Shown piece after piece: positions 22,782-63,314 of a DNA stretch of 64,000 bases. The notes below the pieces were generated by a model. The model was not told the DNA's origin and made no database searches. It saw only the letters and a list, made by a program, of their open reading frames with translations. The DNA is from Escherichia coli (GTDB taxonomy: Bacteria > Pseudomonadota > Gammaproteobacteria > Enterobacterales > Enterobacteriaceae). Position 1 is the first letter of the stretch. Each line of letters begins with the position of its first letter. The position numbers and the translations under genes are program-made. The stretch lies in NCBI RefSeq assembly GCF_024223415.1, contig NZ_CP100500.1; one strand, 5' to 3'.

Positions 22782-22801
22782 ATGCCGGATGCGACGCATG
22801 C

Positions 22802-23556
<755 letters not shown>

Positions 23557-23660
23557 ATCAGCATACTTGTCCTTAGCCTTCTGCAGTGACAGCTGGTAGT
23601 ACAGCGTGCTTCTGGCCAGCCCTGCAGCCTTTAACAGGTCAGACTGGCAGTGTCCGCACT

Positions 23661-24191
23661 TCAGGCTCTGGATGACTTTCGTTTTTTCTCCAGCTCCTGG
23701 CGCTTTTTTTCCAGGAGATGCTCCTGCATGGCTTTCAGATATGCATTTTCTGCGCGAAGATAACGCAGCTCATTCTTCATCTCTTCCGGCGTCATGTTTG
23801 CCTCGTTTTCATGGGTATCATCAGAACGGGTCATGCTTTTCTCCTTCCTGCGCCTGATAAAGGCCTCATTACCAGATTTGCGGTAGCCTTTTATCCAGTT
23901 TTTAACCATGTTGTGGCTGGGAATGTTAAACCGGGCAGCTACCCGGGGTAGAGACTCAGAATGCCCGAGAGCATAAAGAACCACGCAAAGTTTATCTTCA
24001 GGAGAATAGCTACGCTTGTGTCTGCAATCCAGTGCCTGAGGACCGTGAAGAAGAAAAAGATTAATCCAGTGTGAGAGGCTGGTGTGAGAAAGTTGAAAGA
24101 GTTTTGCCGTAGAAATGATGCCTGCATGACCGGCCAGGTAATGATTTACAGCGGCAAGTTTTACTTCAAATGAATGTTTCATAAACTGCAC
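23661..24191 (-). CDS. IS3-family transposase OrfA (HTH, 176 aa)
   Basis: Translation shows HTH plus leucine-zipper-like C-terminus; ends at LEKKRKSSRA just after an A6 slippery run. Confidence 0.8.
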   Translation of the reverse strand: MQFMKHSFEVKLAAVNHYLAGHAGIISTAKLFQLSHTSLSHWINLFLLHGPQALDCRHKRSYSPEDKLCVVLYALGHSESLPRVAARFNIPSHNMVKNWIKGYRKSGNEAFIRRRKEKSMTRSDDTHENEANMTPEEMKNELRYLRAENAYLKAMQEHLLEKKRQELEKKRKSSRA

Positions 24192-24236
24192 CTTCAGATG
24201 TCAGATTATGTCCAACATTTGGGGTGCAGTTCAATG

Positions 24237-24333: not shown

Positions 24334-25559
24334 ATGGGAATTAACGAAATCATCATGTACATCATGATGTTCTTTATGCTGATAGCTGCCGTAGACAGGA
24401 TCCTGTCGCAGTTCGGCGGTTCTGCTCGTTTCCTCGGTAAGTTCGGTAAAAGTATCGAAGGATCAGGCGGTCAGTTCGAAGAAGGCTTTATGGCAATGGG
24501 CGCTCTGGGTCTGGCGATGGTCGGTATGACCGCGCTGGCACCGGTACTGGCTCACGTACTCGGGCCGGTAATTATCCCGGTTTACGAAATGCTCGGCGCA
24601 AACCCGTCAATGTTCGCCGGAACGCTGCTGGCGTGCGATATGGGCGGCTTCTTCCTCGCCAAAGAGCTGGCGGGCGGCGACGTAGCCGCGTGGCTATACT
24701 CTGGGTTAATTCTCGGGTCGATGATGGGGCCAACGATTGTGTTTTCCATTCCGGTGGCGCTCGGCATTATCGAACCTTCTGACCGTCGTTATCTGGCGCT
24801 CGGCGTGCTGGCGGGCATTGTGACCATTCCGATTGGTTGTATCGCTGGTGGTCTGGTAGCTATGTACTCCGGTGTGCAGATCAACGGCCAGCCGGTGGAA
24901 TTCACTTTCGCCCTGATCCTGATGAACATGATCCCGGTGATCATTGTTGCGATTCTGGTGGCGCTGGGGCTGAAATTCATCCCGGAAAAAATGATCAACG
25001 GCTTCCAGATCTTCGCCAAATTCCTCGTTGCATTGATCACCCTCGGTCTTGCCGCTGCGGTAGTGAAATTCCTGCTTGGCTGGGAACTGATCCCCGGTCT
25101 GGATCCTATCTTTATGGCCCTGGCGATAAACCCGGTGAGGTGATGCGCGCCATTGAAGTTATCGGTTCTATCTCCTGCGTTCTGTTAGGGGCGTATCCGA
25201 TGGTGCTGCTGCTGACCCGCTGGTTTGAAAAACCGCTGATGAGCGTCGGTAAAGTGCTGAATATGAACAACATCGCGGCAGCCGGCATGGTGGCAACGCT
25301 TGCCAACAACATCCCGATGTTCGGCATGATGAAGCAGATGGATACCCGCGGCAAAGTCATCAACTGCGCCTTCGCCGTTTCTGCTGCTTTCGCCCTGGGC
25401 GACCACTTAGGCTTCGCCGCTGCCAACATGAATGCCATGATCTTCCCGATGATTGTCGGCAAGTTGATCGGCGGCGTAACGGCGATTGGCGTGGCGATGA
25501 TGCTGGTGCCAAAAGACGACGCGGCCGCAGCTAAAACCGAAGCGGAGGCACAATCGTGA
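24334..25559 (+). pseudogene. eutH: eutH ethanolamine permease, disrupted by a 1-bp frameshift
   Basis: 262 codons in frame from ATG 24334 to ...GLDPIFMA, then LAINPVR-stop at 25141-25143; the remaining 146 codons (PGDKPGEVMRAIEV... to stop 25557-25559) are in another frame; 262+146 = 408 aa, the canonical EutH length. Confidence 0.75.
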
Positions 25560-58852: not shown

Positions 58853-58913
58853 ATCGCAGATAGCAAAAAAGCGCCTTTAGGGCGCTTTTTTACATTGGTG
58901 GGTCGTGCAGGAT
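58853..58913. repeat. 61-bp direct repeat, copy 1 (lysV 3-prime end plus terminator)
   Basis: Identical to 59009-59069: atcgcagatagcaaaaaagcgcctttagggcgcttttttacattggtgggtcgtgcaggat. Confidence 0.85.
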
Positions 58914-59008
58914 GACTCGCTTCGCTCGCCCTTCGGGCCGTCGCCGCGAGCGGCTCCGTTGTTTCGCTGCGCTCAACTCGAACCTGCTGCAGGTTCGAAT
59001 CTTTGAGT

Positions 59009-59069
59009 ATCGCAGATAGCAAAAAAGCGCCTTTAGGGCGCTTTTTTACATTGGTGGGTCGTGCAGGAT
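59009..59069. repeat. 61-bp direct repeat, copy 2 (authentic lysV 3-prime end plus its terminator)
   Basis: Includes the last 18 nt of tRNA-Lys and the rho-independent terminator hairpin gcgcctttagggcgc with its T/A runs. Confidence 0.85.
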
Positions 59070-59707: not shown

Positions 59708-61123
59708 ATGAAAATCAAAACTCGCTTCGCGCCAAGCCCAACAGGCTATCTGCACGTTGGCGGCGCGCGTACTGCTCTTTACTCCTGGCTTTTTGCACGT
59801 AATCACGGCGGTGAGTTCGTGCTGCGTATTGAAGACACCGATCTTGAGCGTTCCACGCCGGAAGCTATCGAAGCCATTATGGATGGCATGAACTGGCTGA
59901 GCCTGGAGTGGGATGAAGGTCCGTACTACCAGACCAAACGTTTTGATCGCTACAACGCGGTGATCGATCAGATGCTGGAAGAGGGCACTGCTTATAAATG
60001 CTATTGCTCTAAAGAGCGCCTGGAAGCGCTGCGCGAAGAGCAAATGGCGAAAGGTGAGAAGCCGCGTTATGACGGTCGCTGCCGCCACAGTCATGAGCAT
60101 CACGCTGATGATGAGCCGTGTGTCGTACGTTTTGCTAACCCGCAGGAAGGTTCTGTTGTTTTTGACGATCAGATCCGTGGTCCGATCGAGTTCAGCAACC
60201 AGGAACTGGACGATCTTATTATCCGCCGTACCGATGGTTCCCCAACCTATAACTTCTGTGTGGTTGTCGATGACTGGGATATGGAAATCACCCACGTTAT
60301 CCGTGGCGAAGACCATATCAACAACACGCCACGCCAGATCAACATTCTTAAAGCCCTGAAAGCGCCGGTACCGGTTTATGCGCACGTTTCTATGATCAAC
60401 GGCGATGACGGCAAAAAACTGTCCAAACGTCACGGGGCAGTCAGCGTAATGCAGTATCGTGATGACGGTTATTTGCCAGAAGCACTGCTGAACTATCTGG
60501 TGCGTCTGGGCTGGTCCCACGGCGATCAGGAAATCTTCACTCGTGAAGAGATGATCAAATACTTCACTTTGAATGCCGTCAGCAAATCTGCCAGTGCGTT
60601 CAACACCGACAAGCTGCTGTGGCTGAACCATCACTACATTAACGCGCTGCCGCCGGAGTATGTAGCTACTCACTTACAGTGGCACATTGAGCAGGAAAAT
60701 ATCGATACCCGTAACGGCCCGCAGCTGGCTGATCTGGTGAAACTGCTGGGTGAACGCTGCAAGACGCTGAAAGAGATGGCACAGAGCTGCCGTTATTTCT
60801 ACGAAGATTTTGCTGAGTTCGATGCCGATGCGGCGAAAAAACATCTGCGTCCGGTAGCGCGTCAGCCGCTGGAAGTGGTTCGTGACAAACTGGCCGCGAT
60901 TACTGACTGGACAGCTGAAAACGTTCATCACGCTATTCAGGCGACGGCGGATGAGCTGGAAGTGGGTATGGGTAAAGTTGGTATGCCGCTGCGTGTCGCC
61001 GTAACCGGTGCGGGGCAGTCTCCGGCGCTGGACGTTACCGTTCACGCGATCGGTAAGACCCGCAGTATCGAGCGTATCAACAAAGCGCTGGCTTTTATTG
61101 CGGAACGCGAAAATCAGCAGTAA
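59708..61123 (+). CDS. gltX: glutamyl-tRNA synthetase (471 aa)
   Basis: HIGH-type motif ([15 protein letters not shown]), KMSKS-like KLSKR. Confidence 0.95.
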
Positions 61124-61651
61124 TTAGCGCATAAAAGATAAACGGCAGGAGAGATACCCCTGCCGTTTTTTATTTATCCGGTGCGCCGTAAAACCCCGTC
61201 CTTCAGGGCGGGGATATAAGGCGCGGTTTTCCACCTGACCAGGTGTTTGCTGTTGTTCAATGTATTGGCGGATGACGGATATTGGCGCACCTCCGCAGCT
61301 ACTGGCAAAATAGCCAGGACTCCACAAAACGCCTTTGTAGTAATACCTGACTGCAATATCTGGTCGATCTCGTCGCAGTAACCTACCCGATACGCCTTTG
61401 AGGCTGTTTACCAGACTGGATATCGCCAGTTTGGAAGGATAGTTAATTAACAAATGGACGTGATCTGGTTCGCCATCCATTTCAACCAGTTCAGCTTCAA
61501 AATCAGCACATACATTTGAAAAGTAAGTGCGTAGTTTTTCTGTCGCGTCATAGTCAAAAATCTGACGTCGGTATCTGGTGACAAAGACCAGATGAACATG
61601 CATCAGGAAAACACAATGCCTTCCCCGTCGGATATCGGTTTCTTTATTCAT
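61124..61651 (-). CDS. tnpA: IS200-like HuH (Y1) transposase TnpA
   Basis: HVHLVF...PDHVHLLINYP (HuH motif) and GYFASS catalytic-Tyr region; the ORF runs without a stop through the gltX terminator so the true 3-prime end is uncertain; start at MNKETD or nearby. Confidence 0.7.
   Translation of the reverse strand: MNKETDIRRGRHCVFLMHVHLVFVTRYRRQIFDYDATEKLRTYFSNVCADFEAELVEMDGEPDHVHLLINYPSKLAISSLVNSLKGVSGRLLRRDRPDIAVRYYYKGVLWSPGYFASSCGGAPISVIRQYIEQQQTPGQVENRALYPRPEGRGFTAHRINKKRQGYLSCRLSFMR
61140..61172. terminator. rho-independent terminator downstream of gltX
   Basis: aaa-cggcaggagagatacccctgccg-ttttttatt. Confidence 0.7.
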
Positions 61652-62920
61652 AGACCAAAGTATCATTTGGCCGGTGAAACGACTACAGGCATTTAAATTC
61701 CAGTTAAGACCAGGTGGTCAACAGGAGCGTGAAATGAGGCGCTTCGCAGGCGCATGTCGTTTCGTTTTCAATCGTGTTCTGGCGCTTCAGAATGAGAATC
61801 ATGAGGCCGGTAATAAATACATCCCTTACGGGAAAATGGCTTCCTGGCTGGTTGAGTGGAAAAACGCACTGAAACGCAATGGCTTAAAGATTCGCCCTCA
61901 CAGCCATTGCAACAGTCACTGAAAGACCTTGAGCGGGCTTACAAAAACTTCTTCCGGAAGCGGGCTGCTTTTCCCCGATTCAAAAAAGCGGGGACAGAAT
62001 GATGCATTCCGCTACCCGCAGGGCGTTAAGCTCGATCAGGAAAACAGCCGTATTTTTCTGCCGAAACTTGGCTGGATGCGCTACCGGAACAGCCGTCAGG
62101 TCACGGGAGTTGTGAAAAATGTCACTGTCAGCCAGTCCTGCGGTAAGTGGTACATCAGTATTCAGACAGAAAGTGAAGTATCAACTCCGGTTCACCCTTC
62201 AGCATCAATGATCGGGCTGGATGCTGGCGTGGCTAAACTCGCCACGCTGTCAGATGGCACAGTCTTTGAGCCTGTAAACAGTTTTCAGAAAAACCAGAAG
62301 ACGCTGGCGAGACTTCAGCGACAGTTAAGCCGCAAGGTCAAATTCAGCAATAACTGGCAGAAGCAGAAACGCAAAATACAGCGACTGCATTCCTGTACCG
62401 CAAATATCCGCAGAGACTACCTTCACAAAGTTACAACGACCGTCAGCAAAAAACACGCAATGATAGTCATTGAGGATTTGAAGGTCAGCAACATGTCAAA
62501 GTCAGCAGCGGGTACGGTCAGCCAGCCGGGGCGCAATGTCCGGGCAAAATCAGGTTTAAACCGTTCGATACTGGATCAGGGCTGGTATGAAATGCGCCGC
62601 CAGCTTGAGTACAAGCAGCTCTGGCGTGGCGGTCAGGTGCTTGCTGTTCCGCCAGCGTACACAAGCCAGCGTTGCGCGTGCTGTGGTCATACAGCGAAAG
62701 AAAATCGCCTGTCACAAAGTAAATTCAGATGCCAGGTATGTGGATATACAGCGAACGCCGATGTAAACGGCGCTCGTAACATTTTAGCGGCGGGGCACGC
62801 CGTTCTTGCCTGTGGAGGGATGGTGCAGTCAGGCCGCTCGTTGAAGCAGGAACCCACCGAAATGATTCAGGCGACAGCCTGAACGTAGCAGGGATCCTCG
62901 TCATTCAGGGCGTGGAGGAT
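61175..62920. mobile_element. IS200/IS605-family element (divergent tnpA / tnpB); boundaries approximate
   Basis: HuH Y1 transposase gene divergent from a TnpB gene, inserted between the gltX terminator and the yfeD stop; ends not determinable by eye. Confidence 0.7.
61674..62882 (+). pseudogene. tnpB: IS605-family TnpB (RuvC-like, Zn-finger) with two compensating frameshifts
   Basis: N-terminus in frame 0 to TGA at 61920-61922; conserved block [39 protein letters not shown] is encoded at 61871-61987 in another frame; frame 0 resumes at the A6 run 61982-61987 and continues to 62882 with a CxxC...CxxC zinc finger. Confidence 0.7.
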
Positions 62921-62921
62921 G

Positions 62922-63314
62922 TCAAGCTGATTCATCTATGTCGAGACGAGCAAGGAAATTACGAATTCCTTCGCGTGACAAAAATTGCGCAACTTTTTCC
63001 TGCTCACTGTGAGTCATGTTGTCTATTGCGCTGATGATTTGCCGATAAGCAGGAGTGCGAATCCCCGGTGCGTATTCGGCAAGGGGTTCTTCGGCTTCCA
63101 GAAGCATCGGTGTGTTATGGAAGGCTGGCGTGTTCTGAATAAACTCGCAAACTTGTGTATCGACCAGAATAAGTCTGGCACGACCGCCTTTCACGCCGGG
63201 AAATTTTTCCGTTTTCCAGCCTTTTTCTCTGATCCAACGGTTAACAGTTTGTTTAGCCACACCGAGGCATTCAGCCAGTTCTTCGGTGGTCATTTTATTG
63301 CGTAATCTTTTCAT
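62922..63314 (-). CDS. yfeD: small DNA-binding protein YfeD (DUF1323, 130 aa)
   Basis: Recognised sequence; paralogue of yfeC. Confidence 0.8.
   Translation of the reverse strand: MKRLRNKMTTEELAECLGVAKQTVNRWIREKGWKTEKFPGVKGGRARLILVDTQVCEFIQNTPAFHNTPMLLEAEEPLAEYAPGIRTPAYRQIISAIDNMTHSEQEKVAQFLSREGIRNFLARLDIDESA

Follow-up and report, generated by a model that had tools for sequence, protein, structure and literature searches.

We analysed a window of 64,000 nucleotides from Escherichia coli (contig NZ_CP100500.1; the window means this whole stretch) and describe here the insertion element that lies in it between gltX and yfeD. The element is a copy of IS609, a member of the IS200/IS605 family that is already known and named in E. 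coli, and its tnpB gene, which in intact form encodes an RNA-guided nuclease, is very probably a decayed pseudogene, with no full-length product and no recoding device. The features that carry this finding are the following.

61674–62882, plus strand: tnpB pseudogene, orthologue of insQ, defined by open reading frames (ORFs), domain matches and alignment to orthologues.
61866–61868, plus strand: -1 frameshift, AAC GCC ACT becoming AACGCACT, located by alignment to orthologues at the same site.
61920–61922, plus strand: TGA stop codon in frame 0 between the two indels, at which the product ends after 82 aa.
61982–61987, plus strand: +1 frameshift, a run of five A (A5) becoming a run of six (A6), located by alignment to intact copies.

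The indels were placed against the intact 402-aa (1209-nt) tnpB present at the same site in O157:H7 strain PV15-279 and in strain 14EC033. Exactly two indels of opposite sign, ~115 bp apart, separate the window gene from these same-site orthologues: one C is lost from a CC doublet (CGCCAC to CGCAC, the remaining C at 61867), and one A is gained in the A run. An earlier reading of the letters of the window, made without database searches and called here the sequence-only reading, had described two opposite-sign indels at this distance with a frame-0 TGA between them, and the alignment confirms this; the comparison with other copies that it proposed placed both indels, at the CC doublet at 61867 and the A6 at 61982–61987. 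The same reading had called the frameshifts compensating, which is correct for length, the indels cancelling each other so that the coding sequence stays at 1209 nt and the element at 1748 bp, but incorrect for the product. Because frame 0 ends at the TGA at 61920–61922, which sits between the indels, a full-length TnpB is prevented and the two changes compensate in length alone. The gene consists of three ORF pieces, located at 61674–61922 (frame 0, 82 aa), 61856–62002 (shifted frame) and 61929–62882 (frame 0); in Pfam, the first piece matches HTH_OrfB_IS605 and the third matches OrfB_IS605 and Cas12f1-like_TNB. Measured against the uninterrupted ORF of ~400 aa of a functional TnpB nuclease, the window allele yields a product of 82 aa.

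The two indels differ in how widely they are shared. A6 is no artefact but a mutation passed down within one lineage, since it is seen in 18 complete E. coli records, which match a 61-nt probe exactly, and its 109-aa product is found in at least 24 independent Logan read-set assemblies. All 18 records carry the +1 change alone, without the -1 change. In strains SCU-316 and NCTC10444, which carry A6 without the C deletion, TnpB ends after 109 aa, and PGAP marks both orthologues as frameshifted; the other tnpB copies inspected have one open frame and are annotated as intact by PGAP. The C deletion is private to the window genome. Its 61-nt probe found no record at ≥99% identity among 4964 genomes, its exact 82-aa product had no match on record, with the successful search for the 109-aa A6-only product as the positive control, and a 40-nt exact pattern gave 0 matches in metagenome contigs.

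Among the explanations offered by the sequence-only reading, that of a decayed copy is thus backed by the A6 lineage mutation together with the frame-0 TGA. We infer that A6 arose before the C loss. The A5-to-A6 insertion would have occurred first, in the ancestor of one E. coli lineage; by itself it leaves a TnpB of 109 aa. The missing C, 115 bp upstream, moves the stop to codon 83 and restores the original length by chance. This second change would be either a neutral mutation that struck tnpB after its inactivation or a base-calling error.

The nearest genomes to the window are SCU-316 (99.98% identity over ~62.5 kb) and NCTC10444 (nearly as close). Across its 64 kb, the window differs from both by two private one-base C deletions and by six private single-nucleotide polymorphisms (two synonymous, three non-synonymous and one probably non-coding), which are too few to decide between mutation and error. 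The second private deletion, C4 to C3 at 25117 in eutH, occurs in 0 of 3137 genomes and is the sole other one-base indel relative to SCU-316, while relative to NCTC10444 a further one-base difference is located at the IS1397 junction, at window position 22800. The features concerned are these.

24334–25559: eutH, frameshifted by the C loss at 25117 into pieces of 269 aa and 240 aa, from the comparison with SCU-316.
22801–24233: IS1397 (IS3 family), 1433 bp, in a REP palindrome between eutG and eutH, from the PGAP annotation of the same insertion in NCTC10444.

The eutH gene lies directly downstream of the IS1397 insertion. This insertion is not in SCU-316, and few genomes have it at the eutG–eutH site.

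One observation weighs against taking the C deletion in tnpB as genuine: in tnpB and eutH alike, a run of C is shortened by one, as a systematic base-calling artefact could also produce. By our own estimate, the loss of the single C is assignable to a sequencing error with a chance only somewhat smaller than that of a mutation. Real neutral mutations are nevertheless favoured, because both C deletions are in genes that are plausibly already non-functional or poorly expressed. The functional verdict on tnpB is identical whether the C deletion is real or an error; should the quality of the assembly be doubted, positions 61867 and 25117 are where to look.

A stronger form of the error explanation, which the sequence-only reading had also raised, is that sequencing or assembly went wrong at short homopolymers in both places and that the real tnpB is intact. 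Both indels do lie in short mononucleotide runs (CC and A5/A6), the C deletion is unseen in any other genome searched, and the other private indel, in eutH, is likewise a C lost from a C run. However, the 18 complete records with A6 come from different laboratories and platforms and are joined by the Logan assemblies, and A6 alone inactivates tnpB; the homopolymer explanation fails for A6 and is confined to the single C. We consider it very improbable that the gene is intact behind two errors.

Slightly less probable still is that the C deletion acts as an intragenic suppressor, which would restore the frame, so that TnpB would work despite 38 replaced residues. The two indels together leave the length as it was, and the last 300 residues, with the RuvC triad and the zinc motifs among them, are back in frame 0, but the TGA between the indels halts translation at codon 83, and only efficient readthrough of this TGA could rescue the protein. 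In addition, homologues conserve the residues that would be replaced, these residues fall in the N-terminal part of solved TnpB structures when aligned, and the non-synonymous excess in the window lineage also speaks against a suppressor. The remaining alternative, also raised in the sequence-only reading, is programmed recoding, in which ribosomal frameshifting or transcriptional slippage at the A run would give full-length TnpB; we regard its chance as almost nil and reject it because the two-indel arrangement is unconserved (in thousands of copies a single frame stays open, 18 records have the +1 alone, the -1 is present in 0 of 4964 genomes, and no conservation of a recoding site is found among tnpB homologues) and because the usual -1 slip at the classic slippery heptamer A AAA AAG, which is present at the A run but is owed solely to the insertion, intact copies having A5, goes in the wrong direction for correcting a +1 insertion, apart from the need for two separate shifts of opposite sign.

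Repaired in silico, with AAC GCC ACT restored, the gene encodes a typical TnpB. The repaired protein has 402 aa and contains the RuvC residues D183, E267 and D363 and two CxxC zinc motifs, all of which align with the solved homologue. It matches NCBIfam guided_TnpB (E=3.7e-114) and the ISDra2 TnpB structures 8bf8, 8exa and 8h1j (E ~9e-54, residues 3–377). In the window allele, the RuvC triad and the zinc motifs are useless without the N-terminal part. The ratio of non-synonymous to synonymous polymorphism (pN/pS) between the repaired window copy and intact orthologues is 0.26–0.41, values that rest on small counts and include one artefactual change (A65R) from the repair position, compared with 0.13–0.16 among intact copies; the O157 and 14EC033 genes at the orthologous site, for example, differ by 11 synonymous and 5 non-synonymous changes (pN/pS 0.13). 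The raised pN/pS of the window copy suggests relaxed constraint and fits decay after inactivation.

The identity of the element and its borders were established by comparison with K-12 and with relatives, and the following features were located.

61178–62925, plus strand: complete IS609 copy, 1748 bp, its ends set by the K-12 empty site and by divergent relatives.
59708–61123, plus strand: gltX, with its terminator downstream at 61140–61171.
61140–61171, plus strand: intrinsic terminator of gltX (AAACGGCAGG...CCTGCCGTTTTTT), host DNA outside the element, read from the sequence.
61174–61177, plus strand: TTAT target motif, the putative target-adjacent motif (TAM) of TnpB, shared by five insertions.
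61194–61213, plus strand: left-end subterminal hairpin, CCCCGTCC-TTCA-GGGCGGGG, kept in all relatives having a left end.
62896–62915, plus strand: right-end subterminal hairpin, CCTCGTCA-TTCA-GGGCGTGG, from comparison with the K-12 copy and relatives.

Window positions 61178–62925 are 97.3% identical over 1748 bp to the feature of the annotated K-12 record labelled "insertion sequence:IS609" (1748 bp), against which identity was measured. Isoforms in ISfinder share at least 95% nucleotide identity with the named element, and the window copy lies within this usual limit. Domain matches and the identity to IS609 both bear out the claim of the sequence-only reading that an IS200/IS605-family element with divergent tnpA and tnpB follows the gltX terminator. 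The span given there, 61124–62920, has to be revised: the K-12 empty site and the relatives place the true ends at 61178 and 62925, and positions 61124–61177 are the gltX 3' region and terminator, not IS609. In K-12 MG1655, gltX and yfeD adjoin with nothing in between, and this empty site, where the gltX terminator hairpin is also found, reads ...CCTGCCGTTTTTTATTTAT and then GCTGATTC..., with TTTAT preceding GCTGATTC. At the left junction of the window, ...TTTATTTAT is followed by CCGGTGCGCC, and at the right junction GGAGGATGTCAA is followed by GCTGATTC; target duplication is absent, and the junction is seamless against the K-12 empty site. The sequence GGAGGATGTCAA forms the right-end terminus in all relatives compared. 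At the left end, TTAT directly precedes the element in each of five independent insertions, which involve IS609 or relatives and are found in the window, in K-12, on pISHS7_3 and on plasmids of Klebsiella and E. albertii. In the window, this TTAT belongs to the U-tail of the gltX terminator, and IS609 inserted 3' of it, right where yfeD has its stop.

The element shows the structural traits of the IS200/IS605 family: it has an imperfect subterminal hairpin at either end and no terminal inverted repeats, and it sits 3' of a fixed short motif that was not duplicated on insertion. In the K-12 copy, the right-end hairpin (CCACGTCC...GGGCGTGG) is paired at the positions where the window copy has two mismatches, T/T and A/G, which are present in all gltX-site copies. 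Position 3 of this hairpin covaries as A-T or C-G in relatives, compared with T/T in the window and the other gltX-site copies. Such mismatches might reduce recognition by TnpA and thereby help to fix the gltX-site copy in place.

With a junction-specific probe, the gltX–yfeD insertion was found in 535 of 5426 genomes. IS609 itself matches in 4836 of the 5426, mostly at loci other than gltX–yfeD, and is thus present in most E. coli genomes, at a median of 2 places per genome; the other sites include ydcL–ydcO, yeaR/DUF1869–yeaQ and a disrupted TetR gene.

Divergently from tnpB lies the transposase gene.

61124–61666, minus strand: tnpA ORF, Y1 HUH transposase, 180 aa, with its core at ~61241–61651.

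The tnpA product is covered by Pfam Y1_Tnp over 1–121/121 (E=2.6e-40) and by NCBIfam transpos_IS200 over 2–126/126, and it has the HUH motif (HVHLL) and the C-terminal tyrosine motif (RQYIEQQ). It is therefore a Y1 HUH transposase, as in the IS200/IS605 family, with its natural stop codon missing and its catalytic core intact. The sequence-only reading had observed that tnpA reads out through the gltX terminator without a stop of its own, and the ORF does run ~37 codons past the lost stop, through the left-end hairpin and the terminator, to the TAA at 61124–61126. Where the relative on plasmid pISHS7_3 ends in ...QQQTPR (138 aa), IS609 tnpA reads ...QQQTPGQVENR..., and beyond the tyrosine motif it continues as ...TPGQVENRALYPRPEGRGFTAHRI... 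into the flanking DNA. The suspicion that the 3' end of tnpA was altered is correct insofar as the stop is lost, but the loss is not owed to this insertion, being common to the IS609 copies inspected: it is seen in the K-12, O157, 14EC033, SCU-316 and NCTC10444 copies, and PGAP flags tnpA as "missing C-terminus" in every copy inspected, including those at two further loci. From these comparisons, the stop loss appears to be a property of IS609 as a whole. Several IS609 copies, including that of K-12, have internal tnpA stops; the window ORF is open. Zero transposition or new insertions of IS609 occurred in K-12 mutation-accumulation lines (PMC5009759).

The right end of the element contributes to yfeD and, as predicted, to an omega RNA.

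62922–63314, minus strand: yfeD, whose stop TGA (62922–62924) and preceding wobble base (62925) come from the IS609 right end.
62787–62925, plus strand: predicted omega-RNA scaffold, comprising the tnpB 3' end and the right end (RNAalifold, nine relatives).
62926–62941, plus strand: putative omega-RNA guide, GCTGATTCATCTATGT, in host DNA past the right end and antisense to the last yfeD codons.

IS609 is inserted within the last Ala codon of yfeD; this codon and the stop are GCA TAA in K-12 and GCT TGA in the window, which leaves the YfeD protein unchanged; WP_000826499.1 (130 aa) is the YfeD annotated in IS-bearing strains. The yfeC gene lies beyond yfeD. A transcript reading out of the IS609 right end would be antisense to the yfeD 3' end.

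Members of the IS200/IS605 family transpose as single-stranded DNA ("peel and paste"), the top strand being excised and inserted by TnpA, which recognises the hairpins near both ends; the omega RNA of TnpB consists of the tnpB 3' end, the right end and ~16 nt of flanking DNA. The region to which the sequence-only reading had assigned the omega RNA, the tnpB 3' end with the right end, is the expected one. For the last 226 nt of the element and nine relatives (78–100% identity), RNAalifold produced a consensus fold in which seven pairs show compensatory changes, three of them in the helix at 62862–62886 around the tnpB stop and one in the right-end hairpin. Only 1 of 500 shuffled controls reached seven compensatory pairs, and the single-sequence fold of the region has z=-2.3. 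The shuffle and slide controls support the predicted omega-RNA fold; counting against it are the small alignment of nine related sequences and the fact that the structure was scored on the same alignment from which it was derived. The covariance-model search that had been proposed as a check found no Rfam family at threshold in this region. A RAGATH-18 candidate at 62809–62852 scored 26.5 bits against a gathering score of 44.9 (E=0.09) and was treated as uninformative. This sub-threshold match coincides with two predicted omega-RNA helices.

By analogy with the family, we infer the guide at 62926–62941, the omega RNA itself and the use of TTAT as TAM. In a working element of the family, the complex of TnpB and omega RNA would cut the TTAT-flanked empty site again, which would lead to the element being copied back by recombination.

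Comparisons of the window copy with other elements indicate a common architecture with differences in detail. The K-12 IS609 (yncK/insQ, between ydcL and ydcO) is like the window copy in its length of 1748 bp, its ends, its TTAT target, its divergent tnpA and tnpB and the loss of the natural tnpA stop. However, it is located at another site, its insQ is intact at 402 aa, its tnpA (yncK) has an internal stop, and its right-end hairpin is paired. The element on the E. coli plasmid pISHS7_3 (NZ_CP092255) has 77.5% nucleotide identity over the whole of IS609 and the same ends and TTAT, but both of its genes are intact (TnpA has 138 aa and a stop of its own, TnpB has 402 aa), and it is presumably functional.

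In the case of ISDra2 from Deinococcus radiodurans, the TAM lies 5' of the left end and the omega RNA is located at the tnpB 3' end and right end, an architecture like that predicted for IS609. The RuvC D/E/D residues and the zinc-ribbon cysteines are conserved in the repaired TnpB of the window copy (the alignment shown is to 9yyg). The ISDra2 TAM is TTGAT instead of the putative TTAT of IS609, and its tnpA is co-directional with tnpB instead of divergent; moreover, the window IS609 copy, unlike ISDra2, cannot make the TnpB protein. IS608 from Helicobacter pylori resembles IS609 in its Y1 HUH transposase, with HxH and a C-terminal YIxxQ tyrosine, in its imperfect subterminal hairpins, and in inserting 3' of a tetranucleotide without target duplication. 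The IS608 target is TTAC, whereas that of IS609 is TTAT, and the IS609 TnpA lacks a stop, with an extension that depends on the flanking DNA.

A relative of ~78% identity, in which the left end, tnpB and the right end are kept and tnpA is lost, occurs widely on conjugative plasmids, with matches in 863 plasmid records from Klebsiella, and is also found on an E. coli plasmid. Copies on Salmonella and Raoultella plasmids keep just tnpB and the right end. Elsewhere in the window, upstream of gltX, Rfam finds RtT RNA at 58896–59021 (minus strand) and 58913–59009, with 51.6 bits, above the gathering score. This region adjoins the lysV-valY-valX-valU tRNA cluster, and its repeat length differs from that of SCU-316.

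The locus is best annotated as a copy of IS609 in which tnpB is a pseudogene, and the compensating frameshifts are best taken as a coincidence of length, not a recoding signal. The biological weight of the case is small: the element is known, and the anomaly is genuine but has an ordinary explanation, the decay of tnpB. The A6 allele can serve as a lineage marker common to the 18 complete records.

Across the IS609 copies at four loci, tnpB is usually intact and tnpA is a pseudogene in every copy inspected. Most tnpB copies stand at fixed chromosomal sites, and their low pN/pS points to purifying selection, also where orthologues at a single site are compared. It is doubtful, though conceivable from these sequences, that the TnpB and omega RNA of IS609 keep a function independent of their own transposase; such a function could be to police empty sites flanked by TTAT or to serve the host. 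If this were true, the window allele would be a natural knockout, and the function of TnpB would be dispensable in one lineage. It is known that tnpB outnumbers tnpA, and the decayed tnpA and conserved tnpB of IS609 across E. coli agree with this excess. Whether TnpB persists in the absence of its transposase is a question that the IS609 pattern could help to address.

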